The position numbers were made by a program, and so were the translations under genes. A stretch of DNA of 32,000 bases, taken from the NCBI RefSeq assembly GCF_000341395.1, contig NC_020304.1, positions 750,001-782,000 of the forward strand. Direction: 5' to 3'. Origin of the DNA: Desulfocapsa sulfexigens DSM 10523. Lineage in GTDB: Bacteria > Desulfobacterota > Desulfobulbia > Desulfobulbales > Desulfocapsaceae. Below are positions 8,158 to 25,758 of the stretch, piece after piece; the stretch's first letter is position 1, and every line of letters starts with the position of its first letter. The notes beneath the pieces are model-generated. The model saw only the letters and a program-made list of their open reading frames with translations. It had not been told where the DNA came from and did not search any database.

Positions 8158-8219
8158 TGGTACGGAGATCGGAGTCGAACCGACACGGGCCAAAGCCCGC
8201 TGGATTTTGAGCCCAGTGC
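8158..8219 (-). repeat. decayed partial copy (3' ~62 nt) of tRNA-Leu(CAA); distal att-type direct repeat of the island
   Basis: It aligns to 24348-24410 with a 37-nt perfect core (8175-8211), 4 mismatches and a 1-nt deletion. The changes break acceptor and T-stem pairing, so it is not a functional tRNA. Confidence 0.85.
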
Positions 8220-8341: not shown

Positions 8342-8398
8342 AACACATTGACTCTCAGTAAATTTAACTGTACGGTCAAAAAAGGAGGCCTTCACACC

Positions 8399-8641
8399 AT
8401 GTCAAAAATTAAATATCCATATCATGTGCGCCTACCCAAATACATTGGCCCGGCAATCAAGGATGCTCGTAAAAAAAAGCAATGGACCCAAAAGGACCTT
8501 GCTGACTACACCGCAACGAGCGTGAAGTTTATAAGTAATATCGAGCAGGGCAAAACCACAGCACAACTTGATAAAGTTTTTGATTTGATACGTACCGTAG
8601 GGCTGAGAGTTTACCTAACCGAAGGAGATATCGACAAATGA
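8399..8641 (+). CDS. hipB: HipB-like XRE-family HTH antitoxin
   Basis: The HTH segment is WTQKDLADYTATSVKFISNIEQGK. GGAGG at 8384-8388 precedes the ATG at 8399, whereas the track ORF begins at an upstream TTG (8348). The stop overlaps the hipA start (ATGA). Confidence 0.8.
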   Translation: MSKIKYPYHVRLPKYIGPAIKDARKKKQWTQKDLADYTATSVKFISNIEQGKTTAQLDKVFDLIRTVGLRVYLTEGDIDK

Positions 8642-9894
8642 GTAATCTCACAGTCTACTGGGATCAACAAATCGTCGGTACAATATCAAGACACCCAAAA
8701 GGCGAAATCACCTTTCAATACGCTGCCGAGTGGCTCAAAAACAGTGGGCGCCAAATATCACTGTCACTGCCATGTCAAGAAGAACGATTCTCCCCTGGAG
8801 TCAGCACAGCTTTTTTTGAAAATCTCTTTCCCGAGAGTGACGCACGAACCATTCTAGCCTTCAACCATCGATTCGACAAAAAAGACACCTTTGCCTTTCT
8901 CGAAAATTTTGGAGAAGATTGCGCTGGTGCCCTCTCCATTATTCCTGAGAGTGGAGATATTCCTCCTCATTCCAGCAAGTATCGATGTATAGACGTTGAG
9001 CTGCAAAAGGCATTGCAGGCCATCGAATCGGATCCTGGTAAGCACAAATTATATCCTGAGTTAGCTAACGCCCGCCTATCAATTGCCGGAGCTCAAGACA
9101 AATTACCAGTGTATTATGAGAAGGGAAGCTTTTCTCTCCCTGAGAATTCGGCATCGCCTACAACGCATATAATAAAACCTGCCAGTCCTTATTTTCATGA
9201 TATCCAGAGAAATGAAGTATTCTGTATGGACCTGGCCCGGCAGGCTGGCCTCTCAGTCCCTCACTCTGAACTATACACGTTTGCAGGCTATGAACTGTTT
9301 CTTATAGAACGTTATGATCGATTCCACTCAGAGAATAAAGTGAAACGGGTACATCAGGAAGATTTCTGTCAGGCAATGGGACTACCGTTTCACAAAAAAT
9401 ATCAGGAACAGGGAGGCCCAGGCTTTTTACACTGCAGAGAACTCGCCGAGGAGCATTTATCAGCCGATATATCAGTGGTAAAACAAAAGCTGACCGCTGT
9501 CATGACTTTCAATTTTCTCATAGGCAACAATGATGCGCATGGTAAAAATTTCTCAATTATTCACAAAGATACTATTACGCTCGCACCGTTCTATGATTTA
9601 GTTTCAACACAGGTTTATCCTAATTTGGATCGCAAACTTGCCATGGCAATAGGTAATACCTACAGGCACGATCGAGTGAACCAAGGTGCTTTTGTCAAAC
9701 TCAGTAAGGATATGAAACTTCGGCCTGAAAAGGTTTTTGAAATTATCACAGCAACTGCTCAAAAAATTGGAAAAATATACGAGAAGGTACTGGCTATACA
9801 TGAAAAGCAGTATGGTAAGGCAGTGATTTATTCGGATCTCCATACTGTGCTGCTCACAAATCTTGCTCGAATACAGGAAATTATGAGGAATTAG
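8638..9894 (+). CDS. hipA: HipA-family serine/threonine kinase toxin
   Basis: 418 aa. The HipA hallmarks are present: SIAGAQDKLPV and the catalytic-loop segment GNNDAHGKNFS. Confidence 0.9.
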   Translation: MSNLTVYWDQQIVGTISRHPKGEITFQYAAEWLKNSGRQISLSLPCQEERFSPGVSTAFFENLFPESDARTILAFNHRFDKKDTFAFLENFGEDCAGALSIIPESGDIPPHSSKYRCIDVELQKALQAIESDPGKHKLYPELANARLSIAGAQDKLPVYYEKGSFSLPENSASPTTHIIKPASPYFHDIQRNEVFCMDLARQAGLSVPHSELYTFAGYELFLIERYDRFHSENKVKRVHQEDFCQAMGLPFHKKYQEQGGPGFLHCRELAEEHLSADISVVKQKLTAVMTFNFLIGNNDAHGKNFSIIHKDTITLAPFYDLVSTQVYPNLDRKLAMAIGNTYRHDRVNQGAFVKLSKDMKLRPEKVFEIITATAQKIGKIYEKVLAIHEKQYGKAVIYSDLHTVLLTNLARIQEIMRN

Positions 9895-10325: not shown

Positions 10326-10361
10326 CCCCCCCCTTTTGATCAAATCAGTGGGGGGGGGGGG
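10326..10361. repeat. C8 ... G12 homopolymer pair forming a potential hairpin
   Basis: CCCCCCCC (10326-10333), then 16 nt containing the palindrome TTGATCAA, then GGGGGGGGGGGG (10350-10361). It lies ~150 bp upstream of the operon start. Confidence 0.7.
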
Positions 10362-10512: not shown

Positions 10513-11631
10513 ATGTCAGCAAAAGTGAAGAATTCTCATATAAATATCAGCAAAGAATTACTTATAGAAAACTATATTTCTGATACAAGGCCATGGATTA
10601 TAGGGTACTCAGGAGGTAAAGATTCAACATTATTATTACAATTGGTTTTTGAAATCCTCTCTGACGATAGGGTTAATAATGAAAAGCCAATTCACATAAT
10701 AACCTCAGATACTGGCGTAGAACCGCCTAACATACTAACGCATGTCAAAGAAAACCTGGCAAATATTCAAACGTTTATCGACAAACAAAACTTACCAATC
10801 AATATCCATCAGGTAGTTCCCTCTTTAGATAACAAATTCTGGGTAAATCTCATTGGGAGAGGCTACCCTTCACCAACTAGATGGTTTCGCTGGTGTACAT
10901 CTAAAATGAAAATTAAGCCAACAAAAGGAATAATAGAGCAGTTGGTTGAACAACACGGTAGCACTATATTGCTACTAGGGACAAGAAAAGATGAGAGTCA
11001 AGCCAGAAAGCGTTCGATAGAAAAACGTGAGTATAGCACTAGAAGACTCAACCCTCATCATGAAATCAAAAACACACTAGTTTTGGCCCCCATTTCTGAC
11101 TGGACAACAGACGAAGTTTGGGAGTACCTGTTCAACGAACTTCCACCCTGGGGAGGGAATCATGATGTTCTTTTTGATCTGTACAAACAAGCAAATAGCG
11201 GTGAATGCCCCTTGGTTGTTGACCTTAACACCCCATCGTGCGGGGGAAGTCGATTCGGTTGCTGGACCTGTACCGTCGTTAAAACAGACAAGTCAATGGA
11301 AAGCTTCATCGAGCAGGGAGCCGTTTGGATGCAACCATTGAATAACTTTAGAAATTGGATTAAAGAGATTAGGGAAGATGAACATCGACGGAACCATTAC
11401 AGAAGAACTGGAGAACTGGGCAACGGCCCGTTCAATTCAACAACAAGACAAGAGATTCTAGAAAATTTACTTGATACTGAATCAAAATTACCCGACAACA
11501 TTGAATTAATTAGTGATGATGAAATTGTTCACATTCAAAAAATATGGACAGAAGAGTTTGATGTAATGAACTCTGCCTTAAAAATTGCCAACAAATTTAA
11601 AAGGCAACCAATGAAAAGAAGAAAAAAATAA
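10513..11631 (+). CDS. DndC/SspD-type PAPS-reductase-fold (PP-loop) DNA sulfur-modification protein
   Basis: 372 aa. It has the PP-loop YSGGKDST, then LIGRGYPSPTRWFRWCTSKMKIKP, and then ECPLVVDLNTPSCGGSRFGCWTCTVVKTDKSM. These are the motifs I associate with DndC. Confidence 0.85.
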   Translation: MSAKVKNSHINISKELLIENYISDTRPWIIGYSGGKDSTLLLQLVFEILSDDRVNNEKPIHIITSDTGVEPPNILTHVKENLANIQTFIDKQNLPINIHQVVPSLDNKFWVNLIGRGYPSPTRWFRWCTSKMKIKPTKGIIEQLVEQHGSTILLLGTRKDESQARKRSIEKREYSTRRLNPHHEIKNTLVLAPISDWTTDEVWEYLFNELPPWGGNHDVLFDLYKQANSGECPLVVDLNTPSCGGSRFGCWTCTVVKTDKSMESFIEQGAVWMQPLNNFRNWIKEIREDEHRRNHYRRTGELGNGPFNSTTRQEILENLLDTESKLPDNIELISDDEIVHIQKIWTEEFDVMNSALKIANKFKRQPMKRRKK

Positions 11632-11822
11632 TGGATAAAAAATATCTAACTAGAAAATTATCTGATCTTTCAAAAGATCACGATGTCCCTGAGTACCTTA
11701 TCCCTCAACTCATACATTTAATGGAGAGATATCCAAATATTGCAATACGAGGTGCGAAGTCTAGTTTAAAAACAGATATTGAGAAAATAATCACTAATGC
11801 AATGAAGGAAGGAAACTTATAG
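11631..11822 (+). CDS. 63-aa protein of unknown function, translationally coupled on both sides
   Basis: Its start overlaps the DndC-like stop (TAATG), and its stop overlaps the GTG start of the next gene. I recognised no motif. Confidence 0.4.
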   Translation: MDKKYLTRKLSDLSKDHDVPEYLIPQLIHLMERYPNIAIRGAKSSLKTDIEKIITNAMKEGNL

Positions 11823-13840
11823 TGCATATCATATCCATAACATTAAAAAATATTTTTTCTTATTATGGGGAAAAGATTTTTGACTTGTCACCCCCAAATA
11901 ATGGCAAAAAAAACATTGTCATTATACGAGGACGAAACAACCAAGGTAAAACAAGTTTTTTAAATAGCATCAAATTACTTTTTGGTGGCGTTTCTGAAGA
12001 TCTATTGCAAAAAGTACCGAGAGGGATAACGACAAAACAATACATCTATGGCGCAAGTGATAGATGGTGGGGAATATTGAATTATCGTGCCAAGGAAAAA
12101 GGAGTAAGTAACTGTTCAATTTCTATTAAATTATATACCGAAAACGGAGAGGCTTTAATAACCAGAAAGTGGTCAAATATTACCAATACTTCTTTCAATG
12201 AAATGGTCATGGTTGATGACCCTATTGAAGGTTATCTTGAAAATGATCAAGCGCAAGAGTATCTAAATCGAATATTACCTATTGAATATCTACCATTTTT
12301 CTTTTTTGACGGTGAAGAAGTACAACATCTTGCAGAAGCAAATACTAATCAAACCATCTCTAAAATGGAGCAATTGTTAAATATCCGGCCCGTTGAGAAT
12401 GTTTTGTCTGCAATAAAATCAGTAAAAGGGTCTTGGAAGAGTCAGAGCATGGACAGACATGCGGTAGCTGACTTGGAGAAAGCAAAGAATAAAAAACAAG
12501 AATTTATATCAGAAATAGCAGGACTAGAACAAGAAAAAGATGATCTCGAAAATGATTTAGCGGAAGAAGAGGAGGCCTTAAAACGAACCGAAAGGATGCT
12601 AGATATTATTGGCGGTCATACAGGTGTTGAAAATAGAGCAATATTAAAAACAGAAGTAAAGCATCTAGAGGAGACTCAAGATGAACTTTTCGCAAAAATA
12701 TCAGATTTTTTTGGTGGTGATGCTTTTCTTATGCTTAACCCTAAATTGATAGAAAAGTCACTTAAAATCATTCAAAAAAACATTCACAACTTCAACCAAC
12801 AACAACTCACTTTACTAGGTACTCTACAAAATCAGTTACCAATATTATTAGAACAGCCACCATATTCATCTCCTCCACTAACGACAAACCAAATTGCTTT
12901 CTATCAGCAACGAATAAAAAAGCAAATTGAAGTATTTCAACAACCAATAAATAGTGAAGAAACTTTTAATCTCGATCCATCCAGAGCTCAAAAACTTTAT
13001 GACACTCTCATAAGATATTCAGACGATCCTGATGCATTTTCTGAGTTAAGAAAGTTAGTATCAAAGGCAAGAAATATTCAAATTGCAATAAATCAAAAAA
13101 ATGATCTTCTAGACAATGCAAAACACCTTGCAGAAGAGGAGAAAAAACATTTTCAAGAGTTAAAAGAACAAGAGTCGATCATCAAAAAGACGTTATTTGA
13201 AATTAATGACAGTATAAGAGATAAAGATAGCCAAATAACTCAAATAGCTTCCAGCTTATCTGAAATAACTCAGAACATTAACCGTCTAGTTGATTCTGTA
13301 AAAGTCGCAGAAGACTATAGAGGTAGATATGACTTAGCAACCCGAACTCAAAATATGCTTGAAAGTTTTAAACATGACTTAAAGAAAGAAGCAAGAGAGC
13401 AACTTGAAATCGAAGTTAATAAGAATCTATCTACAATACTAGACTCCAACACATTAATTAATACAGTAAAAATTAGTGATGAATTCCTAATTACTTACCT
13501 AGATCAAAGGGGTAACTCTATCGGAATGGGTACAATTTCAGCGGGTATGAAACAAATCGCAGCAACTTCTCTTTTATGGGCTTTAAAAACAGTTTCAAAT
13601 AAAGAGTTTCCAGTAATTATAGACACTCCACTAGCTAGAATCGACGCACAACATCAAGCAAACTTACTGGAACGATACTACCCACACGCTAGCAAGCAAG
13701 TGATAATTCTGCCTACTGATTCTGAATTAGATGAATCTAAATCAAAGAAACTTCAAAAACACTGTTATAAAACATTTGAGCTGAAGAATCCCAGTGGTAC
13801 CAATACAGAAATAGTGACATTAGAGGTGCCCAATGGCTGA
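11822..13840 (+). CDS. DndD/SspC-type SMC-like ATPase
   Basis: 672 aa. It has an N-terminal Walker A (GRNNQGKTSF), a long charged coiled-coil middle, and a C-terminal FPVIIDTPLARIDAQHQANLLERYYPHASKQVIILPTDSEL, which matches the DndD C-terminal signature as I recall it. Confidence 0.8.
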   Translation: MHIISITLKNIFSYYGEKIFDLSPPNNGKKNIVIIRGRNNQGKTSFLNSIKLLFGGVSEDLLQKVPRGITTKQYIYGASDRWWGILNYRAKEKGVSNCSISIKLYTENGEALITRKWSNITNTSFNEMVMVDDPIEGYLENDQAQEYLNRILPIEYLPFFFFDGEEVQHLAEANTNQTISKMEQLLNIRPVENVLSAIKSVKGSWKSQSMDRHAVADLEKAKNKKQEFISEIAGLEQEKDDLENDLAEEEEALKRTERMLDIIGGHTGVENRAILKTEVKHLEETQDELFAKISDFFGGDAFLMLNPKLIEKSLKIIQKNIHNFNQQQLTLLGTLQNQLPILLEQPPYSSPPLTTNQIAFYQQRIKKQIEVFQQPINSEETFNLDPSRAQKLYDTLIRYSDDPDAFSELRKLVSKARNIQIAINQKNDLLDNAKHLAEEEKKHFQELKEQESIIKKTLFEINDSIRDKDSQITQIASSLSEITQNINRLVDSVKVAEDYRGRYDLATRTQNMLESFKHDLKKEAREQLEIEVNKNLSTILDSNTLINTVKISDEFLITYLDQRGNSIGMGTISAGMKQIAATSLLWALKTVSNKEFPVIIDTPLARIDAQHQANLLERYYPHASKQVIILPTDSELDESKSKKLQKHCYKTFELKNPSGTNTEIVTLEVPNG

Positions 13841-15314
13841 TATATATACCGACCAAATTGATGAGCAACTAATTTCTGATGTCCTTCATTATGGCTTTAA
13901 AACCAAAACAGCACCAAAATTAAGAGTACTCCGACTTGCGCTAGCAAAATCATTACAGATTACAACTCCCCCTAATTCTGACTTTGATAAAATACCTGAA
14001 AAAGGTTCTGAGTATAGTCTTAAACAAGTTACAGGCCGTGACTCTGAGAATGACCTTGATGATTCAGTTCGAGCTATGCTTTCAATTTATCATGAGGATG
14101 ATTTCTTTAACAAAGAGAAAGATTATCGAAAACATTTACAGCGACACATTAGAAGAGGATTAAAAGAGATAAGAACAAGCTGGGCAAGAGGACACGACTT
14201 TTCAAGCTACTTAGAACATGAACTCTTACCAAACCTGACAATTGATGATGATCTTGAAAGGAATACCTTATCAAACCAAAATCTTATCGATTCGCTAGAG
14301 GAAATTGGAGTCAATGGACGGATCAATGAAAGAGTTGAAGGATCTCGAATTAGTCGCTTCTTTCTCTATTTTGAAAATGCTAATGATTATGATCAATTAA
14401 AAAAAGGTTTAGGAAAATTAGCAATGCTTCTTGGTCTAGGTGACAAAGGAGTACTAATGCAACCCACGAATCAACCAAGAATAATTTCTCTTGATGTTCC
14501 CAGGGAGCAATCTAGTTGGAAAACAATTCAAGCATCATCGTTCTGGGACTGGACAAAAACAGATGAAATAAAGAAGTATGTTCTTCCAATATGGCTTGGA
14601 CAAGATGTTATTGGAGGCAACTACTCATTTGACTTACAGGAAGCACCCCATATTTTAGTGTCAGGAACAACAGGCAGCGGGAAAAGTGTTTGTTTACACA
14701 GTATAATATTGTCCCTACTAGCAACCTTGCCCAAAGGAGACATTGAATTAGCTCTTATTGACCCCAAAAGGGTTGAGTTTGTTAGATACGAGTCCACCTC
14801 CCAATTATATGAAGGAGGGGTTGTCTATTTAGTTGATCAGGCTGCTAATTTATTAGAGGAATTAGTTGATGAAATGGAAAGACGACATCAATTGATGTAT
14901 GAAGCGAATGTAACAAATTTATCAGAAGGGAGGGGTCAAAACAAAATAAACCTTCCATACATCGTTGTAGTAATAGAAGAACTCGCCGATCTATTAATGC
15001 AGTCTAGTGATATTGAAACCCCGTTAGTCAGGTTGGCCCAGAAAGCTCGATCCTGTGGTATTCACTTAGTTTTAGCTACTCAAAGACCGGATTCAACCAT
15101 ACTCACAGGGTTGCTCCGAAGTAATATACCTGGAAGAATTGCTCTTCGAGTACAAAAGCACACGGAATCAAATATTATTTTAGATGAAAAGGGGGCTGAG
15201 GCATTATTAGGAAGGGGAGATATGTTAGTAAAAATACCTCCCGATATTGCCCCCAAACGTGTTCATGGAGCAAAGTTGACGCAAGATGATTTAGAGCAAA
15301 TCAAACATGTTTAG
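13833..15314 (+). CDS. FtsK/SpoIIIE-type ATPase with an N-terminal, possibly DndE-like, domain
   Basis: 493 aa, overlapping the upstream gene by 8 nt. The C-terminal half has Walker A (VSGTTGSGKSV), Walker B (VVVIEELADL) and IHLVLATQRPDSTILTGLLRSNIPGRIALRV. The N-terminal ~120 aa (LRVLRLALAKSLQITTPP...GSEYSLKQVTG...VRAMLSIYH) resembles the DndE pattern from memory only. Confidence 0.7.
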   Translation: MADIYTDQIDEQLISDVLHYGFKTKTAPKLRVLRLALAKSLQITTPPNSDFDKIPEKGSEYSLKQVTGRDSENDLDDSVRAMLSIYHEDDFFNKEKDYRKHLQRHIRRGLKEIRTSWARGHDFSSYLEHELLPNLTIDDDLERNTLSNQNLIDSLEEIGVNGRINERVEGSRISRFFLYFENANDYDQLKKGLGKLAMLLGLGDKGVLMQPTNQPRIISLDVPREQSSWKTIQASSFWDWTKTDEIKKYVLPIWLGQDVIGGNYSFDLQEAPHILVSGTTGSGKSVCLHSIILSLLATLPKGDIELALIDPKRVEFVRYESTSQLYEGGVVYLVDQAANLLEELVDEMERRHQLMYEANVTNLSEGRGQNKINLPYIVVVIEELADLLMQSSDIETPLVRLAQKARSCGIHLVLATQRPDSTILTGLLRSNIPGRIALRVQKHTESNIILDEKGAEALLGRGDMLVKIPPDIAPKRVHGAKLTQDDLEQIKHV

Positions 15315-15326
15315 AGGATCTGTCTT

Positions 15327-16496
15327 ATGGATAGTGTAATAACGATTTATGATTTCAAGCTACTTGCATTAACAATTGATAGAATTGGTCCATTTCAAGA
15401 GAAACAATTTGAAATTGATTTTACTGATAAAAACAACAATCCCTGCAATTTTTATCTTTTTGTTTCTCGTAATGGGTCAGGCAAAACTACTATTTTCGAG
15501 ACCTTAACATCCTTATTAGGATTGTTAGACAACCCTTCTCCAACTGAATTTCACCAAGAAGACTTGGACCTAAATCAAGGGAGGGCTCAACTTGATATTT
15601 GGCTCAGACTCCGATGGCAAGGCAAAGAGCAAGCAATAGTTTTTTCGATCGTCGGAGGAAGAATAGGCGAAGAATTTTCATTCAAAGTTTGGGATAAAGA
15701 GACCTTAGAAGAATACAATGCAGAGAGTTGGCACCGAATCAGCTATATATCCCAAACTTCAGGTTCTATCAAGAAGCCAAGCCCAAGTTCAGAACTGGTT
15801 GAGACTCTACTTGCTGTTATACAAGCAGGAAAAAAGTCAACTCCAAGTGATTTTGGGGATAGCCAAATAGCTCTTCCTACAGTTTTATACTTTTCTGCGT
15901 ATCGAGATATTCCTGATATTACTGAAGAACCACATACAAAACCAAACTACTCTGCTAGAAGTATTACCCAACCTAAACACTGGTCTTATAATGCAAGTCA
16001 TCGGTTTGAACCGCACGACCAAAATTGGCATGGTTCTCTTGATAATCTACTAGTCTGGCTTAAATGGCTTAGTGATGGAAGATTTAAGAAAGCATGCGAT
16101 TTGATCAACTCCAAAGTGTTTGCCGGAACTGATAAATATCTAAAAGATGTCAGAAGAGACCCCCCGGAAGCTATTGTCTCATGCTCTACTGGAACTCACC
16201 GTCTTGACCGTTTGAGCAGTGGTGAAAAAAGCCTTGTTCACTTATTCCTCAGGCTTGGTTCTCATATGACCCAGCATACCATAGTAATAATAGATGAACT
16301 AGAGGCCCATTTGCATCCACGATGGCAGCATGCTCTATTTAAATCTCTTAAAGAATTCGCTTCAAGTAATAGCGGAATAACAATTTTATCCAGCACTCAC
16401 TCCACCGATATTCTACACACTTTTTCTGAAAGCATAGATATTCCAGAGAATGGGCTTATCAAGGGTGGCACAATCATTGATAAAGGTTTAAAATAA
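15327..16496 (+). CDS. ABC/AAA_21-type ATPase (AriA / OLD-ATPase-like)
   Basis: 389 aa. It has Walker A (SRNGSGKTT), an ABC-signature-like LSSGEKSL, and Walker B plus H-loop (IVIIDELEAHLHP). Confidence 0.75.
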   Translation: MDSVITIYDFKLLALTIDRIGPFQEKQFEIDFTDKNNNPCNFYLFVSRNGSGKTTIFETLTSLLGLLDNPSPTEFHQEDLDLNQGRAQLDIWLRLRWQGKEQAIVFSIVGGRIGEEFSFKVWDKETLEEYNAESWHRISYISQTSGSIKKPSPSSELVETLLAVIQAGKKSTPSDFGDSQIALPTVLYFSAYRDIPDITEEPHTKPNYSARSITQPKHWSYNASHRFEPHDQNWHGSLDNLLVWLKWLSDGRFKKACDLINSKVFAGTDKYLKDVRRDPPEAIVSCSTGTHRLDRLSSGEKSLVHLFLRLGSHMTQHTIVIIDELEAHLHPRWQHALFKSLKEFASSNSGITILSSTHSTDILHTFSESIDIPENGLIKGGTIIDKGLK

Positions 16497-16499
16497 CAG

Positions 16500-17372
16500 A
16501 TGGTTAGCTTCAAAGACATTCCTAATGATTTAGAAATCTCTTCACTATATGAGGGGGGCATCAAGGTCCTTGTTGAATCGAATGATGATTTAGTCATTTT
16601 AAGAGATAAATGGTTCTTCAATCATAAAGATAAATTGTGTTTTGAGAGTGTTAGTGATGAAGAAGGCAGCAGCGGAGGTTGCCAGGAAGTAATAGCTAAA
16701 GTAAAACGCTACAGACGAGCCCACACCACTGCTTTTGGTATTGTTGACAGGGATGTTCTTCTCAGTGATGAAGATCATAGAGATGATTTATGGTGGGAAA
16801 CTGATGATGAGAAATTTAGAGCATCTACGCCCTATGGTAATCAAATTTTTATATTAAGTCGCTGGGAAATTGAAAACTACTTACTCAAACCACTTGCAAT
16901 TAAAGCATTTGTTAAAGATAAGTTATGTTCTCCTGCGGCACCTCAACTAGAGACATCAGACTTTCTAGGGCAGGCTGATGATTTAATTGTAATTACTAGC
17001 CTGAGTACTATTGCCTCAGCTAAGTCTAATTCAGCACCTAAACCAAAGTGGGGGCTAGACAAGTCTGGGGCGGAATTAAAAAACTTAATTGCAACGGAAC
17101 TCAACGTGTCTATAGATGAAGTTGAGGAGCATTTTGAAAAAATCAAAACCTTTGCAACCACCCATAATGACGATGAGTGGGATGGATTAACGAGGTTATT
17201 AGATGGAAAACGTATCTTCCACAGACTTAACATCTACCTAAAAGAAAAATTTACTCTTAGAACTCTTGATTTACTTGAGGAAAAAGGTGTACTTGCCGGG
17301 TATGTGAATTCATATGATCAAATAGATAAGGAATTAAAACAAATGGTTGATGGTTTTCTTGCATCCCATTAA
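16500..17372 (+). CDS. DUF4435/TOPRIM-like protein (AriB / OLD-nuclease-like)
   Basis: 290 aa, starting 3 nt after the ATPase stop. VLVESNDD (TOPRIM Glu), FGIVDRDVLL (DxD) and WEIENYLL are the motifs I associate with DUF4435 partners of AAA_21 ATPases. Confidence 0.6.
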   Translation: MVSFKDIPNDLEISSLYEGGIKVLVESNDDLVILRDKWFFNHKDKLCFESVSDEEGSSGGCQEVIAKVKRYRRAHTTAFGIVDRDVLLSDEDHRDDLWWETDDEKFRASTPYGNQIFILSRWEIENYLLKPLAIKAFVKDKLCSPAAPQLETSDFLGQADDLIVITSLSTIASAKSNSAPKPKWGLDKSGAELKNLIATELNVSIDEVEEHFEKIKTFATTHNDDEWDGLTRLLDGKRIFHRLNIYLKEKFTLRTLDLLEEKGVLAGYVNSYDQIDKELKQMVDGFLASH

Positions 17373-18135
17373 CCAAATGTATGCTCCATATCATAGTAAA
17401 TTGAACACCAATACACCTAGACAAGTAACACCTGTAACAACTGTAAAACAATAATATACACACAATTAAAGTATATAATTTCAGTTAATTACAAAAGGAT
17501 ACTTCAAACTATCTTCTGAAATAATCAGTTGTTCGACTAGCTAATAATTCCTTTTCAATAGACCTTGTTTGTCTTGCGCTCAAATTGGCCTTCCTTTGGA
17601 ATCTCCTAAGCTTTTTACCCATTTTTATTGCTTCCTTACTATTATCCAGCCAGGCTCTTAACAATCCATAACTCGTTATCATTCTAGACAACAATTTGCT
17701 TTTCTCTTTACTCCTGTAAAAACTGAACATGATTTGTTCCAGCTTTTTTTGATCAATTTCAGGAATCTTCAAGTATCTATTTTGTAACATCAGGAATACT
17801 TCTTTCGAGGAAGAGATTTCGGATATATTTTCGATTTTGAGAACTCTTTTTATTGTGGCTTTTCCATGCAATGAGAATTCTATCCTGCATACCTTCCCTG
17901 CATCAGCGTCAGTCTCTATCTCTACAACCTTGCTATCCCCAACATATTCTCTCTGATAATTGTCGCTCCTTCTACCTTTCTCCTTTGCCTGCGTATTCCA
18001 GTGAATCCGGCCACCCAGTCCACTTGATTCCGGCCAGTAATTCCACGGCAAAGCGGCCACCCAGTCCAGAGGATTCCGGCCAGGGTGTCGGAGCGTAGCG
18101 ACGCGAATATTTCCTTCTTACTCTGTGTGTTGCTC

Positions 18136-18873
18136 TCACGTCAAGCGTGCTTTCTTTTTTCTCATAGATTCTCCTTTCAGTTTGATTTTGTGAGCGGCAT
18201 GTACCAGACGGTCAAGAATGGCGTCGGCTAAAGTCGGATCTCCGATCCGCTCATGCCAGTGCTCTACCGGTAATTGACTGGTTACCAAGGTAGATTTGAG
18301 GCCGTGTCTGTCTTCCAGTATTTCTAGTAAATCATGGCGTTGCTCCTGGTTGAGTGTGGCCAGTCCATAGTCATCAAGTACCAATAGATCTGTTTTTGAA
18401 TAGACAGTCAGTAACTTCAGATAACGGCCATCCCCCTTGGCAAGAGCCAGATCTTCAAAGAGTTTACTCAGACGGAGATAGAGAGCACTATAGCCTTCTC
18501 TGCATGCCTTTTGGGCCAAGGCACAGGCAAGATAGGATTTGCCGACTCCAGTGGGGCCGGTAATAAGCAGATTGGTATGTTCCTTTATCCAGTTGCAGTC
18601 AGCCAGCCTGGTTACCAGTGACCTATCCAGACCACGCGGATGACGGAAGTCTACATCCTCGATTGAGCCATCCTGCCGCAGCTTTGCCTTTCTGAGTCTG
18701 GTCTGAAGTTTTCTGGTTTCCCTGACCGCCTGCTCGCGGTCAAGTAACAGACCGAGGCGTTCTTCGAAACCCAGGTTATCTGCAGTGTCCATGTCCATCT
18801 GTTCCTGGAGTGCTGCGGCCATGCCGGTGAATCGAAGAGTTGTGAGTTTTTCAAGTGTTGGATGCAGAAGCAT
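18136..18873 (-). CDS. istB: IS21 helper ATPase IstB
   Basis: 245 aa. It has Walker A (GPTGVGKSY) and Walker B (LLVLDD), giving the typical IstB/DnaC-like layout. Confidence 0.9.
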   Translation of the reverse strand: MLLHPTLEKLTTLRFTGMAAALQEQMDMDTADNLGFEERLGLLLDREQAVRETRKLQTRLRKAKLRQDGSIEDVDFRHPRGLDRSLVTRLADCNWIKEHTNLLITGPTGVGKSYLACALAQKACREGYSALYLRLSKLFEDLALAKGDGRYLKLLTVYSKTDLLVLDDYGLATLNQEQRHDLLEILEDRHGLKSTLVTSQLPVEHWHERIGDPTLADAILDRLVHAAHKIKLKGESMRKKKARLT

Positions 18874-18893
18874 TTTATCGTTTCCTTTTTGTT

Positions 18894-20447
18894 TTAGTGG
18901 GTTGAGGGAGAATAATACTGAGAGCCACGGATATTTGCGTGATTAACCGGCTTGTCCTCTGTAGCCGGCTTCGGTAGTGGCTTCTGATCAAGGCCGCTTT
19001 TGAGTATGGATTCCACTGAGCGGTAAGAAAGGGCGTTGATATGCAGGGCCCGATGGCATGCTGCCTCAAGGCGTGAATCTCCATAGGCTTTGCCAAGACG
19101 GAGAATGCCCAGCAAAGTGCGATAGGCCTGTTGTGGGTGAGCTCTTTTTACAAGAAGCGTCTCTGTGAGGCAGAGTGTCTCCGGCCCGACCTTGGCAGCC
19201 CAGCGCTTGAACCTGTCCGGATTCCACTCCATGTACTTTCGGTGGTTGACAGGCATATGCTCTTTGACGGTAGTGTGGTGCCCTCGTTGATTCTCCCGGA
19301 TGTGACTGGCCACCCGTTTACCACGAAAGTAACACTCAACCGTGCTTTTGGTATAGCGCACCTCAATCTGTTTTTTGACCAGGTTATATGGAACGGAATA
19401 GTAATGTCCCTCGACCTCCACATGATAGTCGATATGTACAGTGGCCTTTTTCCAGTAGGATAATTCATAAGGGCTGGCTGGAAGTTGTTTCAGGGCAGGT
19501 TTGTCCAGTTCTTCAAAGCGACTTTTACGGCTGCCGGATAACTTCTTGAAAGGCTTGTTGTTCAGTTGCTCAAGGAGTTTGCCTATTTCGCGATTGAGAT
19601 CGTCAATGTTGAAGAAAGTATGTTTACGGAGTTTTGCCAGAATCCAGCGTTCCACCAGCAATACACCGGCCTCAGCCTTGGCCTTGTCCCTTGGTTTTCT
19701 AACCCTTGCAGGCAGCACCACGGTTTGATAATGTCGGGCCAGATCATGATAAGTGGGATTAAGGTCAGGTTCGTAACGGCAGGCTTTTGTGACGCCACTT
19801 TTCAGGTTATCTGGAACGACAACTTCCGGAACCCCACCCAGGAAAGCAAATGTACGGACATGTGAACCGATCCAATCCTCAATCTTCTGGCTGGGAGTGG
19901 CCTCAGCATAGGTGTAGTTGCTGGCACCAAGGACCGCAACAAAGACCTGAGCCTTTGTGATTTCTCCGGTGTGTTGGTCAACGACATCGACGGTTTGGCC
20001 TGCGTAGTCGACAAACAGTTTCTCACCGGCTCGGTGTTCATGGCGCATGACCAGATCAAGCTTGCCGGCCCAATCCCGGTAACTATGGCAGAACCAGCTG
20101 TACTGGTAGCCGTCAGGATGCTGCTCTTTGTATTCCTGCCACAGCAGGTTCAGGGTAACCCCTCGTTTGGATTGGAGCTCTTTGTGGATCTCAGAGAAAT
20201 CTGGAATTAGCCGGCTTGTCCCCGGTGGAGGCGGTGGAGGGAAAAGGGTTTGTTCAAGGCTGCTGTCGCTTAGGTCGTCAGGAAGGGGCCAACCCAGATC
20301 TGCTCTTTTGGTTCGTTGTAAATAGTCACTTACCGTGCTGCTGCCAATACCGCAGCTACGGGAAATTTCACGGTTACTGTGCCCAAGTTCATACTTGAGT
20401 CGTAGTACCTCTCTAATTTTTCGCATAGATAACCTCTTCTTCGGCAT
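18894..20447 (-). CDS. istA: IS21 transposase IstA
   Basis: It has an N-terminal HTH (MRKIREVLRLKYELGHSNREISRSCGIGSSTV) and a DDE core. The start is placed at the ATG at 20447 behind AAGGAGGG; the track ORF starts 8 codons upstream. Confidence 0.9.
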   Translation of the reverse strand: MPKKRLSMRKIREVLRLKYELGHSNREISRSCGIGSSTVSDYLQRTKRADLGWPLPDDLSDSSLEQTLFPPPPPPGTSRLIPDFSEIHKELQSKRGVTLNLLWQEYKEQHPDGYQYSWFCHSYRDWAGKLDLVMRHEHRAGEKLFVDYAGQTVDVVDQHTGEITKAQVFVAVLGASNYTYAEATPSQKIEDWIGSHVRTFAFLGGVPEVVVPDNLKSGVTKACRYEPDLNPTYHDLARHYQTVVLPARVRKPRDKAKAEAGVLLVERWILAKLRKHTFFNIDDLNREIGKLLEQLNNKPFKKLSGSRKSRFEELDKPALKQLPASPYELSYWKKATVHIDYHVEVEGHYYSVPYNLVKKQIEVRYTKSTVECYFRGKRVASHIRENQRGHHTTVKEHMPVNHRKYMEWNPDRFKRWAAKVGPETLCLTETLLVKRAHPQQAYRTLLGILRLGKAYGDSRLEAACHRALHINALSYRSVESILKSGLDQKPLPKPATEDKPVNHANIRGSQYYSPSTH

Positions 20448-20985
20448 GAGCCCTCCTTGAATTTTATTCAAAAAGGCACTCTCTACCAGTTGGTTCTATG
20501 CGTCGCTACTCCCTATTTGGGGTGACCGGATTCCTCTGGAATCACTGGCCGGAATGAAATGGAATCGGTGGCCGGAATCACGTGGAATGAGTGGCCGGTT
20601 TACTCTGGAATCGGTGGCCGGAATCGTCTGGAATATGCATTTGCCCGATAAAAAGTAGTATTGATTTGAAATGTCCTATCTCCAGACCACTTCCTGTAAT
20701 AAGTATTCATAAACCACTCAAGATACTCTTTAGCTTCCTCAGAACTCTGAAAAACTACTTCCATTGTGATATCTATCCGTGTGAGTGTGCCAAAATTCCT
20801 CGATTGTATGATCTCCATAAATTCATCCGTTGCTCCACTCACATCAAGCTTTGAATTATAACTGTGATATTTCCCCGTATTGCTTGCTGGGTAAATCAAA
20901 CTCGGAGTTCTTTCACTTCTACAAAGAGGTGGCTCAGTTTGTTTGAACAGTATTCTGTCATTTTTAAGTGGAGCCTCTGCCTAAA

Positions 20986-21816
20986 TTAAGCTGCCTTTTC
21001 AATTGGTGGCAACATTATGTTGTAGGCCTCATCTGGAGTTCTTTTTTCCAATCCGGAATGTGGTCTTGAGCGGTTATACCAATCAAAATACTGCATGATA
21101 GACCTTCGAGCCTCATTTACTGTATCATAAGCATGCAAATAAACACGTTCGTATTTCACTGATCTCCATAGTCTTTCAACGAATACATTGTCTCGCCAAG
21201 CCCCACGTCCATCCATGCTGATCTTGCAGCCCTTTTCGTGCACTACCTCAATAAACTCTTGTGCGGTAAACTGACTTCCCTGGTCGGTGTTGACAATCTC
21301 TGGGATGCCATGATGAACAAAGGCTTCTTTCAGCACATCAACTGCATGGCAGGCCTCGAGGGTAATAGAAAGTTTTGAGGCCAACACTTTCCGGCTTGCC
21401 CAGTCAACAACAGCCGTCAGATACACAAATCCTTTGGCCATGGGAATATAAGTCGTATCCAGAGCCCAGACCTGGTTGGACTGATCGATACTCTTTCCTC
21501 TCAATAGATACGGATAGATTTTGTGACCTGGATGTTTTTTACTCGTTCCCGGTTTCCTATATAACGCTTCAACTCCCATGCGTTTCATCAGGGTTCCAAC
21601 ATGTTTGCGCCCGACAGAAACACCATCTCGGTTCAGTTGATCACGGAGCATCCTTGCCCCCATAAACGGGTGCTCCAAATGGAGTTCATCAATTTTCCGC
21701 ATCAGCACCAAGTCGTTTTCGTTAACTGGTTTGGGTTTGTAATACACGCTACCACGACTGATCTCAACGACTTGAGCTTGTCGTGTAATCGAAAGAGTAT
21801 GGGCTGGATCTATCAT
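20986..21816 (-). CDS. IS3 transposase OrfB (DDE integrase core)
   Basis: 276 aa with rve-type motifs ([18 protein letters not shown], the RSRPHSGL tail). The frame is open upstream as far as the slippery site. Confidence 0.9.
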
Positions 21817-22115
21817 CGCTTTACGCTCAGCAACCCCACTTTGGTGAGCGCACCTTCTAAAAAATCGTTTTCCAGCGTTAGCTGGCCTATTTTCGCATGT
21901 AGGGTCTTTATATCAACTGCTGGCTCTTTTGAAGTACCTTTGGCAAATACAGAGTCTGCCTCTTCTGTCAGTTGCCTTTTCCAAGCGGTGATCTGGTTGG
22001 GATGCACTTCAAACCGTTGCGCCAGTTCTGCTAGTGTCTTGTCTCCAGCCATCGCTGCAAGGGCCACTTTCGCCTTGAATGCGGCTGAGTGTTTTCTTCT
22101 CGTTCCTTTTGCCAT
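21813..22115 (-). CDS. IS3 transposase OrfA (HTH)
   Basis: 100 aa with a typical IS3 OrfA N-terminus ([16 protein letters not shown]...[22 protein letters not shown]) and a leucine-zipper-like end. Confidence 0.9.
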
Positions 22116-22469
22116 TTTCTGCTCCTTGTTTAAATCTTTTCATGGGAATTATTGGTAGCAGATTTTCCACTTAACAGCTTGTTCAAATTTTCTGGACCAC
22201 CTCTCAATGCTTCCTGAGTTCATCTACAGGAAGGTAGTCAATAGCGTCAGCAACGCTCATGTGAGAATTTATTGTGATTGTGTCAAAATAATAAAAAATC
22301 GCCTTAGGCGTGAATTTCTTCATTTTAGGTACCTATGTATATTTTTCTAAAACTTGTTAAATACAGAGCGATTTAGCCAGTCAATAATGTATAAATTTAC
22401 TAACTGGCTTAACCTTCTTTGCTAAGAAAGCATAGTAAGCTATCCATCCAATATTATAGGATTAGTTAC

Positions 22470-22947: not shown

Positions 22948-24156
22948 TTAACCTGGCTCGTTTTCCATTTTTTGTAATAAATCAGCCCACCACTGCATCA
23001 AATCTCGTCTCTGCTCAATATAATGGCTTCGATGATATGCAGCCCTGACTTTGTTACGCTGCTCATGTGCTAGCGCTTTTTCAATCACATCACCATCAAA
23101 ACCAGACTCATTAGCTATAGTTGAAAACACGGCTCTAAACCCATGCACGGTTGACCGAGAGTGATACCCCATGCGGTACATTGCATAAAGCATAGTATTT
23201 TCTGAGAGAGGTTTATTGCTGTCCCTGATGCCTGGAAATATATACCCATCACGGCCATATAAATTCCCAACCCTTTCCAAAATTGCCCTGGCTTGATTTG
23301 ATAATGGGACATTATGCGGGCTATTTACTTTCATTCGTTCTGCTGGAATACGCCACATTCTTTCCTCTATATCAATCTCATCCCACCTTGCAAATCTTGT
23401 TTCACCACTTCTAGCAGCTGTAAGTATCGTAAATTGTAGTGCAAGCTTAGTATTGATGTGTATATCTGCTGTTTGCATTTTCTTTAAAAACTCTGGCATT
23501 TCATCAATAGATAAGGCTGCTTGGTGTATTACTTTTCTTGTCTTTATAACGCCTTTCATATCTGCGGCTGGATTGTAAGTAGCTCTACCCGTTTGTATAG
23601 CATAACGGAAAACAGCACTCATCCTCTGCAACACCTTTCGAGCAATCTCAAGCGATCCTCTCTTCTCTATGCTTCTGAGAATTTTCAATACAGTTGGAGG
23701 CTGAATTGAATCCACTGGAAAATCCCCTACTACTGGAAATGCATCATGCTCTAAAGTTGCCCTCACTGCATTTGCGTGTTCAGATTTCCATTTACCTTTT
23801 TGATTATCTATCCATTCAAGAGCCACTGCCCTAAAACAATTTTCATCAACTGCTTTTAGTTCTAGTTCTCTATCTACAGTTTCCTGCTTTGCTTTTTTTC
23901 GTTCTTTTGCAGGGTTTTTACCAAGTTTTACCAACTCTCTTGCTTCAGCTCTTGCCTCTCTCGCCTCTTTAAGGCTCATTTTCGGGTACTCACCAAGAAC
24001 AAAAGTTGATTCTCTGCCCAGTATCTTAAAGCGATATCTCCACGTTTTTCCACCAGATTTTGCAATATGAAACCAGAGACCATGCCCATCGGATATCTTG
24101 AAAGGAAGTTTTTCTGGTTTTAAGTTGCGTACTTGTATAGCTGTAAGCTTTGACAT
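22948..24156 (-). CDS. int: P4-type tyrosine integrase
   Basis: The start is placed at MSKLTAIQVRNLK (ATG at 24156), because the longer track ORF runs into the tRNA. It has a DUF4102-type arm domain (GLWFHIAKSGGKTWRYRFK) and a catalytic C-terminus (HGFRAVFST...ALAH...AAYHRSHY). Confidence 0.9.
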   Translation of the reverse strand: MSKLTAIQVRNLKPEKLPFKISDGHGLWFHIAKSGGKTWRYRFKILGRESTFVLGEYPKMSLKEAREARAEARELVKLGKNPAKERKKAKQETVDRELELKAVDENCFRAVALEWIDNQKGKWKSEHANAVRATLEHDAFPVVGDFPVDSIQPPTVLKILRSIEKRGSLEIARKVLQRMSAVFRYAIQTGRATYNPAADMKGVIKTRKVIHQAALSIDEMPEFLKKMQTADIHINTKLALQFTILTAARSGETRFARWDEIDIEERMWRIPAERMKVNSPHNVPLSNQARAILERVGNLYGRDGYIFPGIRDSNKPLSENTMLYAMYRMGYHSRSTVHGFRAVFSTIANESGFDGDVIEKALAHEQRNKVRAAYHRSHYIEQRRDLMQWWADLLQKMENEPG

Positions 24157-24347
24157 TGACGTCACCATGAAAAGTGGGTAAAAGAAAGGAGGGTATTCGG
24201 TTCCTCTGCTGCCATACCCACGGATATACCCACTTTTCACGACAGATGTCAACGGATAAATTTGGACTACCCTGGAAACAAAAAACCCGCAAACCATTTC
24301 TGGATGCGGGTTAAACGGAACGCTTAGGACGTTCTCGGAATATGTAC

Positions 24348-24434
24348 TGGTGCCGGAGGTCGGAATCGAACCGACACGGGCCAAAGCCCGCTGGATTTTG
24401 AGTCCAGTGCGTCTACCAGTTTCACCACTCCGGC
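24348..24434 (-). tRNA. tRNA-Leu (anticodon CAA), class II, encoded CCA
   Basis: The reverse complement is GCCGGAGTGGTGAAACTGGTAGACGCACTGGACTCAAAATCCAGCGGGCTTTGGCCCGTGTCGGTTCGATTCCGACCTCCGGCACCA. It has a 7-bp acceptor stem, an anticodon stem CTGGA/TCCAG with loop CTCAAAA, a long variable arm and a T-arm GTCGG-TTCGATT-CCGAC. Confidence 0.9.
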
Positions 24435-24645: not shown

Positions 24646-25758
24646 ATGAGAGCTACAATCACAGCTAAAACACTACAATCATTGCAACCTAAGGACAAGC
24701 CATATTTCATCCGGTCTACTAATGGCTTCGCAGTAAAGATAAATCCAAAAGGAAGTATTAAGTACATTATAGAAACGAAACTCAATTGTCGTACAGTCCG
24801 TAGAACTATAGGGACTTATCCAGCCATGCCATTAAAAGATGCTAAGGAAGCTGGAGCCAAACTATTACAGGAGATCTTAATAGAACCAAATCAAAGAAAG
24901 ACATCGACATCCCTTAGGATGTTGTTCGACAGTTACACTTCCACTCTGAACCTCAAGGAAACAACACTCAAGGATTATCAGACTGTTATTCCATACTACC
25001 TCTCAGACTGGATGAACAAGAAGGTCACCTCCATCTCCAAAAGTATGGTAGAGAAACGGTTCGTTACCATCAGAGATAAGGGATGGCAGGGAGGAATTCC
25101 AACACACAGTCAAGCGAACAAGGTCATGCGTATCCTCTCAGCACTAATGAACTACGCAATGGCTGACGATATCATCCAGCAGAATCCTGTGGATGTTCTT
25201 AAGCAGAAGAGAGTTGATAGGAGCACTATTAAGAGAAGTAGCTACCTGACAGCACCAGAGGCCAGAGAAGTAACTGAGAGCCTTTCAGATCATCCTGTGG
25301 AGCTTGCAATTGCCATGATGCTATACACTGGACTGAGGAAGAATGAGGCTCTCAGCATACGATGGGAGAATGTCACTAAGGATCTGATAACGATTAAGGA
25401 TACCAAGAATCACAGGGAGCACCTGATCCCAATCACTGAGAGAATACAGAAGATCTTGGATAGAATACCAAGAAGCTCTTCACCATTCTTATTTCCATCC
25501 CCAGTTGACAAGCAAAAGAACATTAGAGACGTTAGACCAACACTGAAGAGGATTGAGAAGAATACAGGAATTAACTTTAAATGTCATGATCTCAGGCGTA
25601 CCTTCGCCACTCGAGCGTCTGAGGTAGGAATAGATTTCCTCATGATCAAGAGGATGCTAAATCATAAGGTATCAGATATAACTGCTCAGTACATCCAGTG
25701 GAACAGCAAGGAGAATCTCCAGAAGATGAAGGAAGCTCTTGAACGTGTTGTGTACTAA
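24646..25758 (+). CDS. second tyrosine integrase (P4-like arm domain)
   Basis: 370 aa. The catalytic region is HDLRRTFATRASEVGIDFLMIKRMLNH...ITAQYI. The N-terminal arm-type domain is LQPKDKPYFIRSTNGFAVKINPKGSIKY. Confidence 0.85.
   Translation: MRATITAKTLQSLQPKDKPYFIRSTNGFAVKINPKGSIKYIIETKLNCRTVRRTIGTYPAMPLKDAKEAGAKLLQEILIEPNQRKTSTSLRMLFDSYTSTLNLKETTLKDYQTVIPYYLSDWMNKKVTSISKSMVEKRFVTIRDKGWQGGIPTHSQANKVMRILSALMNYAMADDIIQQNPVDVLKQKRVDRSTIKRSSYLTAPEAREVTESLSDHPVELAIAMMLYTGLRKNEALSIRWENVTKDLITIKDTKNHREHLIPITERIQKILDRIPRSSSPFLFPSPVDKQKNIRDVRPTLKRIEKNTGINFKCHDLRRTFATRASEVGIDFLMIKRMLNHKVSDITAQYIQWNSKENLQKMKEALERVVY

Follow-up and report, generated by a model that had tools for sequence, protein, structure and literature searches.

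A compact PARIS-like ATPase–TOPRIM pair in a six-gene Dnd-type operon of Desulfocapsa sulfexigens

Two adjacent genes, one for a compact ABC ATPase and the other for a DUF4435 protein that carries a TOPRIM nuclease domain, are located in a 32,000-nucleotide stretch of the genome of Desulfocapsa sulfexigens DSM 10523 (contig NC_020304.1, positions 750,001 to 782,000). This whole stretch is referred to as the window, and its first letter is position 1 in the coordinates below. The two genes close a six-gene operon that opens with four Dnd-type genes. Comparison of related loci identifies the pair as an integrated accessory arm of one lineage of this modification and scanning module, not a chance neighbour. 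We tentatively read the pair as the ATPase-gated effector, or guardian, arm of a mobile Dnd-type defence operon, in which a nuclease would be released upon a trigger in a PARIS-like manner.

The six-gene operon

Both open reading frames (ORFs) of the pair are present where a preliminary description, made from the sequence alone, had placed them. Together with the genes upstream they form the following series:

10513..11631, + strand: dndC-like gene for a PAPS-reductase-fold sulfurtransferase (372 residues; PP-loop SGGKDS and a Cys cluster CPLVVDLNTPSCGGSRFGCWTC)
11631..11822, + strand: gene for the small protein Sp-DndD (63 residues; Pfam PF20306, 6.1e-13, 49 bits against a cut-off of 27.2)
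11822..13840, + strand: dndD, encoding an SMC-like ABC ATPase (672 residues, GTG start; NCBIfam TIGR03185, 278 bits against a cut-off of 246; Pfam AAA_23)
13833..15314, + strand: DndE (N-terminal, residues ~23–115) fused to an FtsK/HerA translocase ATPase (493 residues; Pfam)
15327..16496, + strand: compact OLD/PtuA/AriA-type ABC ATPase, the putative gatekeeper of the pair (389 residues, ATG start; Pfam AAA_15 and AAA_21)
16500..17372, + strand: AriB-like DUF4435 protein, the presumed effector (290 residues, ATG start; TOPRIM nuclease domain at residues 1 to ~130, followed by a helical C-terminal domain)

The stop codon of dndC overlaps the start of sp-dndD (TAATG), the stop of sp-dndD overlaps the GTG start of dndD (TAGTG), and dndD and dndE-ftsK share 8 nucleotides (nt). 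A gap of 12 nt separates dndE-ftsK from the ATPase gene, with a ribosome-binding site (GAGGA) 9 nt before the ATPase ATG, and 3 nt separate the ATPase gene from the TOPRIM gene. No terminator-like sites were found between the + strand genes at these junctions. The tight or overlapping junctions make genes 1–4 and genes 5–6 a single translationally coupled operon (dndC, sp-dndD, dndD, dndE::ftsK, ATPase, TOPRIM). The pair had previously been described as co-operonic with modification genes, a view that these junctions support and that the fixed linkage across species, described below, extends.

The first gene product is recognized by NCBIfam TIGR03183 (394 bits against a cut-off of 290), the PADLOC DndC model (433 bits) and Pfam PAPS_reduct. 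The second gene, at 63 residues, is too short for the default ORF listing; Pfam describes its family as a 'small protein found in certain Dnd DNA modification systems'. Its sequence corresponds to the C-terminal tail of the 440–490-residue DndC of relatives with high guanine-plus-cytosine (GC) content (e.g. L023, L047, L052, L061 and L070 among the related loci introduced below). Because it is fused to DndC there, Sp-DndD is not detectable as a separate ORF in the high-GC loci. The window therefore carries what by sequence is a split DndC, and DndC and Sp-DndD presumably interact.

DndD lacks a CxC zinc hook, as its sequence contains just two isolated Cys residues. It matches PADLOC model PDLC02719 (PbeC) over its full length with 1567 bits, from which we conclude that a near-identical sequence must have seeded this model. 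PbeABCD is defined by a CxC zinc hook in the ABC ATPase and by an HKD-SF2 helicase partner (PMC10853773). With no CxC and no conserved HKD or helicase gene nearby, we rejected the identification of DndD as PbeC. The fourth protein matches FtsK_SpoIIIE at 3.1e-43 and DndE at 1.3e-6 (29.1 bits against a cut-off of 25), and a DndE-FtsK/HerA fusion beside a DndD-related ATPase characterizes a known subset of Dnd systems (PMC10853773). Neither the cysteine desulfurase gene dndA nor the regulator gene dndB is among the window ORFs scanned, and the 80 related loci contain no sixth conserved family. IscS could replace DndA, by analogy with the IscS-DndBCDE systems.

The 32-kb window contains one long homopolymer, a G12 tract (10350–10361) situated 152 nt ahead of the start codon of dndC. 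A role as a conserved switch was considered and rejected, as 45 related loci have no such tract before their dndC; phase variation specific to this strain, or the scar of an insertion, may account for it.

Linkage of the pair to Dnd genes across genomes

To place the operon in a wider context, a forward scan with the ATPase was carried out on one genome per species (185,579 species). Relatives were found in 136 species, a count that is a lower bound, the scan being pattern-based, and the best 80 loci were analyzed. The system is rare. The same colinear gene string, with the same spacing, was detected by tblastn with the window proteins in Gammaproteobacteria, Betaproteobacteria, Desulfobacterota and Acidobacteriota. 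Its recurrence is far above chance, since the same string occurs in dozens of species.

Clustering of the ORFs in the 80 loci yielded only five recurring families of large proteins: the ATPase (80 loci), DUF4435 (72), DndE-FtsK (64), DndD (61) and DndC (59, colinear in all of these). The next commonest family is Sp-DndD, found in 11 of the 80 loci. The flanking genes differ in nearly every locus, indicating that the cassette moves as a unit. Among the 58 loci with at least 5.2 kb of upstream sequence, 35 have intact colinear dndC/dndD/dndE-ftsK, 17 are partial or disrupted (by frameshifts, insertion sequence (IS) elements or replacements) and 6 are without Dnd genes; Dnd-like genes thus precede the pair in 52 of 58 species genomes with enough upstream DNA. 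DUF4435 follows the ATPase in 65 of the 69 loci with enough downstream room.

The reverse scan, of metagenome contigs with a DndE-FtsK alignment, gave 53 loci in which DndE-FtsK is complete and is followed by 1.3 kb or more of sequence. The ATPase adjoins DndE-FtsK in 38 of these, and DUF4435 is also present in all 34 with enough room. The other 15 are pair-less, consisting of dndC, sp-dndD, dndD and dndE-ftsK followed by unrelated genes. The DndE-FtsK tree cleanly separates loci with the pair from loci without it, as two sister clades, so that the pair was gained or lost once and then kept. No loss of the pair was seen among the 38 cassettes of the pair-bearing clade, an asymmetry to be read with care, given that the genome set was selected by the ATPase. 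The linkage is fixed across the cassette lineage, and the simple stand-alone insertion that the preliminary description had allowed for does not account for it.

The four-gene sister clade (L126–L128, L132, L135–L138, L140–L144, L146, L147 and L150) is a natural 'pair deletion' control lineage.

The proteins of the cassette also diverge together. Pairwise distances of all five large proteins are correlated across 38 intact cassettes (r = 0.88–0.96, Mantel p = 0.001), with r = 0.96 for the ATPase and DndD and r = 0.95 for the ATPase and the TOPRIM protein. The fastest-evolving members are DndD and the TOPRIM protein. No relative was found by scanning 2.9 million viral contigs with the ATPase profile, and a plasmid search gave two matches, one on the Mesorhizobium plasmid pM0123d and one decayed copy.

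The TOPRIM protein

The product of gene 6 matches Pfam DUF4435 with 28.4 bits, narrowly above the cut-off of 27, and the PADLOC AriB model at 9.6e-10. Residues E26, D30, G59-G60 and G80-x-V-D83-R-D85 are invariant in 39 homologues (27–51% identity). The Glu...DxD pattern noticed earlier is therefore a conserved feature, as is the 'EIENYLL' motif (R121-W-E123-I-E125-N-Y127), in which R121, W, E123, E125 and Y127 are invariant across the same homologues. It is a small family: a search of 1.84 billion proteins yielded 432 representatives at 50% identity.

A TOPRIM fold for gene 6 had been proposed as a point to check by structure prediction, and the prediction agrees with it. The AlphaFold2 (AF2) model, calculated from the homologue alignment, has a mean predicted local distance difference test score (pLDDT) of 92 and a predicted template modelling (TM) score of 0.88. 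When it was compared by Foldseek with 350,542 PDB chains, only the AriB chains 8v46_D and 8ux9_A rose above noise (probability 1.0, TM 0.49–0.50, full length, 13–14% identity); no OLD or GajA chains were among the meaningful matches. The metal-binding residues of AriB are E26, D30, D88, E90 and E122 (PMC11464382), and the acidic layout of gene 6 (E26/D30/D83/D85/E123) corresponds to it. Residues R28 and R31 of the AriB interface, judged by inspection of the alignment, are not conserved in the gene 6 homologues. Weak profile matches to the Ku80 C-terminal domain and VPS28 (E 0.007–0.2) were taken as noise, and a Foldseek search of viral structures (BFVD) with the gene 6 model found nothing meaningful. 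Sequence and model together point to a nuclease that is AriB-like, yet distant from AriB.

The ATPase

The ATPase matches Pfam AAA_15 (1.6e-16) and AAA_21 (3.4e-13), and its homologues form a tight family of 377–408 residues. The motifs read from the translation are Walker A (NGSGKTT, residues 49–55), the Q-loop (Q88), the ABC signature (LSSGEK, residues 296–301), Walker B plus D-loop (IIDELEAHLHP, residues 321–331) and the H-loop histidine (H358, within STHS). The Walker A and LSSGEK assignments of the preliminary description stand; its reading of DELEAHLHP as Walker B and H-loop has to be amended, since this segment comprises Walker B and the D-loop. K53, Q88, S297/G299/E300, D323/E324 and H358 are invariant in 30 homologues (44–63% identity), and by its motifs the ATPase looks catalytically intact and active.

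The AF2 model (pLDDT 88) has an insert at residues 69–290 that is mostly β with short helices. The best Foldseek matches are PtuA and retron PtuA ATPases (E 1e-14 to 1e-9, TM ~0.5). PtuA is likewise the best PADLOC match (2.3e-19), and the generic PADLOC AriA model also matches; the NCBIfam PtuA model gives 46 bits against a cut-off of 500. With AriA, the ATPase profile aligns (8.8e-11) only at the C-terminal end, for ~100 residues, and no better than with UvrA or PtuA. Judged from sequence and model, the protein belongs, as a compact form, to the broader OLD/PtuA/AriA group, and it cannot be shown to be an AriA. The earlier impression that it is shorter than AriA was correct (389 residues versus 464 in the AriA chains in the PDB), and the description of it as a compact, divergent variant is apt. 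The proposed PARIS or split-OLD logic, an ABC ATPase with a separate DUF4435 TOPRIM protein, is also retained. The suggested likeness to AriA and AriB applies to the fold of gene 6; it does not extend specifically to the ATPase, whose best structural matches are the PtuA and retron ATPases.

Loci with other gene orders

A second architecture has a duplicated core: dndC, dndD' (730–920 residues), dndE' (141 residues), sp-dndD, dndD, dndE-ftsK, ATPase and TOPRIM. It occurs in five metagenome loci (L119, L122, L125, L129 and L130) and is fully annotated on plasmid pM0123d of Mesorhizobium amorphae CCNWGS0123 (L165; NZ_CP015322, 733811–750950). On this plasmid a cysteine desulfurase gene precedes dndC, and a divergent gene for a 'DNA phosphorothioation-associated DGQHR protein' (DndB-like) lies downstream. 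The second core with the pair, without a dndC of its own, looks like a restriction-type arm beside a complete modification arm. In a third architecture (dndD, ATPase, TOPRIM, dndE), DndE is a protein of 143 residues without an FtsK domain, and dndC is absent from the vicinity.

The pair is also separable from the Dnd genes. Pair-only or partner-swapped loci are scattered in the ATPase tree, nested inside full-cassette clades. In Allochromatium palmeri DSM 15591 (L078), dndC-E were lost, and the left-flank genes are shared with the full-cassette relatives L051 and L055. In two Methylococcaceae loci (L003, 3097–7852; L018, 3998–9894), a PAPS-reductase-HNH fusion, a Cap4-like nuclease and a 578-residue protein replace dndD/dndE-ftsK, while in a further Methylococcaceae genome (L017) the genes ahead of the pair code for the M and S subunits of a type I restriction-modification (RM) system and for another AAA_15 ATPase. 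In three Candidatus Electrothrix genomes (L068, L069 and L076), the pair has intact motifs, and a variable HNH, GHKL-ATPase or Schlafen/AlbA_2 gene lies immediately upstream, in what looks like a slot for swappable partners. Most pair-only copies keep every catalytic motif; L078, L041 and L015 show decay. As the pair-only loci nest in full-cassette clades and most have intact motifs, the pair appears, by sequence, not to be toxic alone in nature.

The DndC-HNH fusion of L003 and L018 is unusual in itself, and the Electrothrix pair sits downstream of a conserved block. Inactivated cassettes are many: Candidatus Methylospira mobilis (L082/L083), Methylobacter luteus (L007), L032, L039, L057, L056, L060 and L166. 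They were inactivated, among other ways, by IS insertion into dndD or dndE-ftsK, by a frameshift in dndC or by splitting of the ATPase gene. Such frequent inactivation suggests that the cassette is costly and often lost. Intact copies in cultured strains are found in Methylomonas sp. LL1, Methylomonas defluvii OY6, Methylobacter tundripaludum SV96, Marinobacter koreensis DSM 17924, Thiocystis violacea DSM 207 and, on pM0123d, Mesorhizobium amorphae CCNWGS0123.

These loci bear on whether the pair is a restriction module dependent on phosphorothioate (PT), which would read PT directly or through DndD-DndE-FtsK, cut unmarked DNA with the TOPRIM nuclease and take the place of DndFGH, PbeABCD, SspE or DndI. 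The position of the pair, fixed at the 3' end of the modification genes, is what such a module would have, and the duplicated-core architecture, a complete dndA-C-D-E set followed by a dndC-less core with the pair, has the look of a modification arm and a restriction arm. OLD-family TOPRIM nucleases, such as OLD and GajA, are able to cut DNA, and ATPase-nuclease PT sensors exist, DndI being an example. The pair-less sister clade, in turn, resembles orphan Dnd modification modules without DndFGH (PMC10853773). However, pair-only loci arose several times from full cassettes, mostly with intact catalytic motifs, and a nuclease attacking unmarked self DNA should not survive the loss of its modification genes. 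This distribution therefore speaks rather against a classical PT-dependent restriction enzyme and for a sequestered, trigger-released effector as in PARIS. Furthermore, no known sulfur-binding domain was detected in the ATPase or the TOPRIM protein (Pfam, and Foldseek in the PDB), and AriB, the characterized DUF4435 relative, cuts tRNA rather than DNA. We consider a PT-dependent restriction module unlikely. The related proposal, that the DndD-DndE::FtsK complex gates the pair by the PT state of the translocated DNA, is in our view similarly doubtful.

Alternatively, the pair could be an autonomous PARIS-type abortive-infection module that responds to a phage protein (an anti-restriction DNA mimic, for instance) without Dnd involvement and is merely co-inherited as a second layer. 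It has the domain architecture of PARIS and an AriB-like fold, some of its neighbours are unrelated defence genes (type I RM M/S, HNH, GHKL ATPase, Schlafen, Cap4-like nuclease), the Electrothrix clade keeps an intact-motif pair with no adjacent DndD/E, and PARIS-like modules embedded in BREX loci are a precedent. A sporadic add-on, however, would be expected to be gained and lost repeatedly, whereas a single acquisition and retention in 38 of 38 cassettes of the DndE-FtsK clade are seen. Moreover, the pair co-diverges with DndD as tightly as its two proteins do with each other, it is tied to DndD-DndE through three gene orders (including an insertion between dndD and dndE), and it is absent from viral contigs, unlike PARIS borne on P4 or prophages. 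Full autonomy is thus rather improbable, if somewhat less so than the restriction module.

A role in the modification machinery itself, rather than as a defence effector, is very improbable. TOPRIM domains act in topoisomerases and primases, and here the TOPRIM protein could nick or religate DNA at sulfur insertion with the ATPase as a clamp; the translational coupling of the pair to the Dnd genes would suit such a role. Yet canonical Dnd systems and the pair-less sister clade have no such pair, although they modify DNA or are equipped for it. The pair is also found without Dnd genes in defence islands, and structurally it comes nearest to a toxic RNase that acts as an effector.

Proposed mechanism

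The mechanism that we infer runs from PT synthesis through sequestration and release of the nuclease to its trigger and substrate. Genes 1–4 would provide a PT-type modification and DNA-scanning module, with DndC as the sulfurtransferase and DndD and DndE as a scanning core motorised by the fused FtsK translocase; sulfur would presumably be supplied by a housekeeping IscS. The ABC ATPase would hold the AriB-like TOPRIM nuclease inactive, and ATP-dependent release or activation would follow upon a trigger. The trigger that we favour is interference with, or abnormal engagement of, the DndD-DndE-FtsK machinery in infection, which would give the pair a guardian or back-up role. Direct reading of sulfur in DNA by the pair is possible and not favoured. 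The freed nuclease would then cut nucleic acid and stop growth; tRNA or another RNA is the favoured substrate, because DUF4435 is kin to AriB and RNase M5, while DNA would also be possible.

Two systems provide precedents for this guardian logic. PARIS senses the anti-restriction protein Ocr and releases AriB, which cleaves tRNA-Lys (PMC11464382), and TOPRIM-linked OLD-ABC modules have been recruited into BREX loci as back-up effectors (PMC12839542).

Several observations weigh against the guardian mechanism. A coiled-coil insert was looked for in the AF2 model of the ATPase and none was found, and AriA is absent from the top 50 Foldseek matches of this model, in which PtuA ranks first. With no coiled coil and with PtuA as the closest structure, an AriA-type hexamer scaffold is not assumable. 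The structural match of gene 6 to AriB reaches a TM score of only ~0.5, and its family profile, searched against PDB sequences with E up to 10, did not match AriB. The co-divergence of the cassette proteins can stem from physical linkage alone. The Electrothrix pair, without neighbouring DndD/E, fits an autonomous sensor equally well. Finally, PT production by FtsK-type Dnd cassettes is itself a presumption.

Genomic island

The operon is cargo of a genomic island integrated at a tRNA gene. The island features in the window are:

8163..8219, no strand assigned: att-like direct repeat, the distal one of the tRNA-Leu island (57 nt, 95% identical to 24354–24410)
8348–8641 and 8638–9894, + strand: hipB-like helix-turn-helix gene and hipA kinase gene (4 nt overlap; HipA_C 3.5e-54)
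18001–20601: IS21 element (istA 18894–20471, istB 18136–18873)
22948–24384, − strand: island integrase ORF adjoining tRNA-Leu (Pfam integrase domains)
24348..24434, − strand: tRNA-Leu(CAA), the island integration site (ARAGORN)

The repeat copy at 24354–24410 falls inside the 3' part of the tRNA-Leu gene, and the two repeats bracket ~16.2 kb containing hipBA, the six-gene operon, the IS21 element, an IS3 copy and the integrase. The GC fraction is 0.34–0.39 at 10–18 kb, the operon region, compared with 0.45–0.50 in parts of the surroundings.

The hipBA toxin-antitoxin (TA) pair, just inside the left end of the island, is not conserved beside the cassette in other loci. An unannotated ORF of 183 residues (17509–18060, − strand) lies just downstream of the operon and runs into the end of the IS21 element; it is probably a gene truncated by the IS21 insertion. 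The IS21 ends have imperfect terminal inverted repeats of 62–79 nt that hold 23-nt tandem repeats. Two identical IS3-family copies (20924–22160 and 27133–28370), in direct orientation and 6209 bp apart, flank the island integrase, tRNA-Leu, a second integrase (24646–25758, + strand) and a 306-residue ORF (26278–27198). The bracketed segment could represent a composite element, or it could serve as a substrate for recombination.

A further alternative is an addiction module, in which the nuclease would be a toxin and the ATPase its antitoxin, with stabilization of the island as their sole role. Pfam annotates AAA_21 as a putative AbiEii-type TA component, the island also has hipBA, and AriA mutations that release AriB are toxic in PARIS (PMC11464382). 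The pair, however, is fixed in one operon lineage and not tied to mobile-element backbones, as its flanks differ nearly everywhere, and decayed cassettes are common, so that loss is possible without killing the host. We regard a pure addiction role as highly unlikely.

Comparison with known systems

The pair shares with PARIS the order of an AAA_15/AAA_21-type ABC ATPase gene followed by a gene for a DUF4435 TOPRIM protein of ~290–305 residues. The fold of gene 6 matches AriB alone in the PDB, the acidic residues align, and the PADLOC AriA and AriB models both match. It differs in that the ATPase has 389 residues rather than the 464 of AriA, is modelled without the coiled-coil inserts (IS1/IS2) and is structurally nearer to PtuA, whereas the gene 6 family profile misses AriB by sequence and the AriB R28/R31 interface is not conserved. 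PARIS is a free two-gene unit on P4 satellites and prophages; the pair here constitutes genes 5–6 of a Dnd operon and was not found in viral contigs. Rules of the PADLOC or DefenseFinder type would call it PARIS, yet it lacks the AriA-type scaffold insert, a stand-alone organization and residence in phages or satellites.

A parallel in gene organization is provided by the TOPRIM-linked OLD-ABC modules recruited into BREX loci, where a PARIS-like pair also lies inside a modification-based defence locus and is read as a back-up effector against anti-restriction (PMC12839542; StySA locus, PMC9009780). In the present case the host is a Dnd or PT-type operon, and the pair is fixed and co-diverging across the cassette clade rather than an occasional recruit.

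The PtuA proteins of Septu and of retrons Ec78/Ec83 are the closest structures to the ATPase, at 13–18% identity; the partner of PtuA is the HNH nuclease PtuB, in place of the TOPRIM protein found here. OLD (P2 Old, class 1/2) and GajA likewise combine an ABC ATPase with TOPRIM nuclease chemistry in a defence role, but as fused proteins, where the window has split genes. Gabija adds a UvrD-like helicase (GajB), and no helicase is conserved here.

Like the known PT partners (DndFGH, PbeABCD, SspE, SspFGH, DndI and SBD-HNH), the pair lies beside dnd modification genes and follows an ATPase-plus-nuclease logic, and DndH and SspH resemble the operon in having FtsK/HerA domains. In none of these partners, however, is an OLD-type ABC ATPase combined with a DUF4435 TOPRIM protein. 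DndI was considered as the same kind of protein and rejected, as it consists of DUF262 plus HNH. The nucleases listed in Dnd neighbourhoods are HKD, HNH, REase, URI, HEPN and PIN, with TOPRIM not among them (PMC10853773). Genes 1–4 belong to the Dnd subtype with a DndE-HerA/FtsK fusion beside a DndD-related ATPase (Krishnan 2020; Rakesh 2024).

For annotation, tools of the PADLOC kind would label 'PbeC' and 'PARIS' separately and miss the unit. No paper describing the six-gene unit, or the ATPase–TOPRIM pair in this Dnd subtype, was found in a search that lay outside Krishnan et al. 2020, from which the Sp-DndD family and the OLD-ABC/TOPRIM classification reportedly derive and which may already depict the neighbourhood. 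If the pair were gated by PT state through DndD-DndE::FtsK, it would represent a fifth kind of PT-dependent restriction or effector arm, beside DndFGH, PbeABCD, SspE/SspFGH and DndI/SBD-HNH, and the first PARIS-like nuclease under the control of an epigenetic mark rather than a phage protein.

PARIS-type pairs are known as free-standing units that sense anti-restriction proteins, or as occasional members of BREX loci, and Dnd systems with DndFGH, Pbe, DndI or HNH partners. The present case adds a compact, divergent PARIS-like pair that is fixed and co-diverging in a lineage of FtsK-motorised Dnd cassettes. The pair-less sister lineage, the pair-only derivatives and the duplicated-core variant are natural variants with which three possible gates of the nuclease can be tested directly: the modification and scanning machinery, the mark on the DNA, and a protein of the phage.

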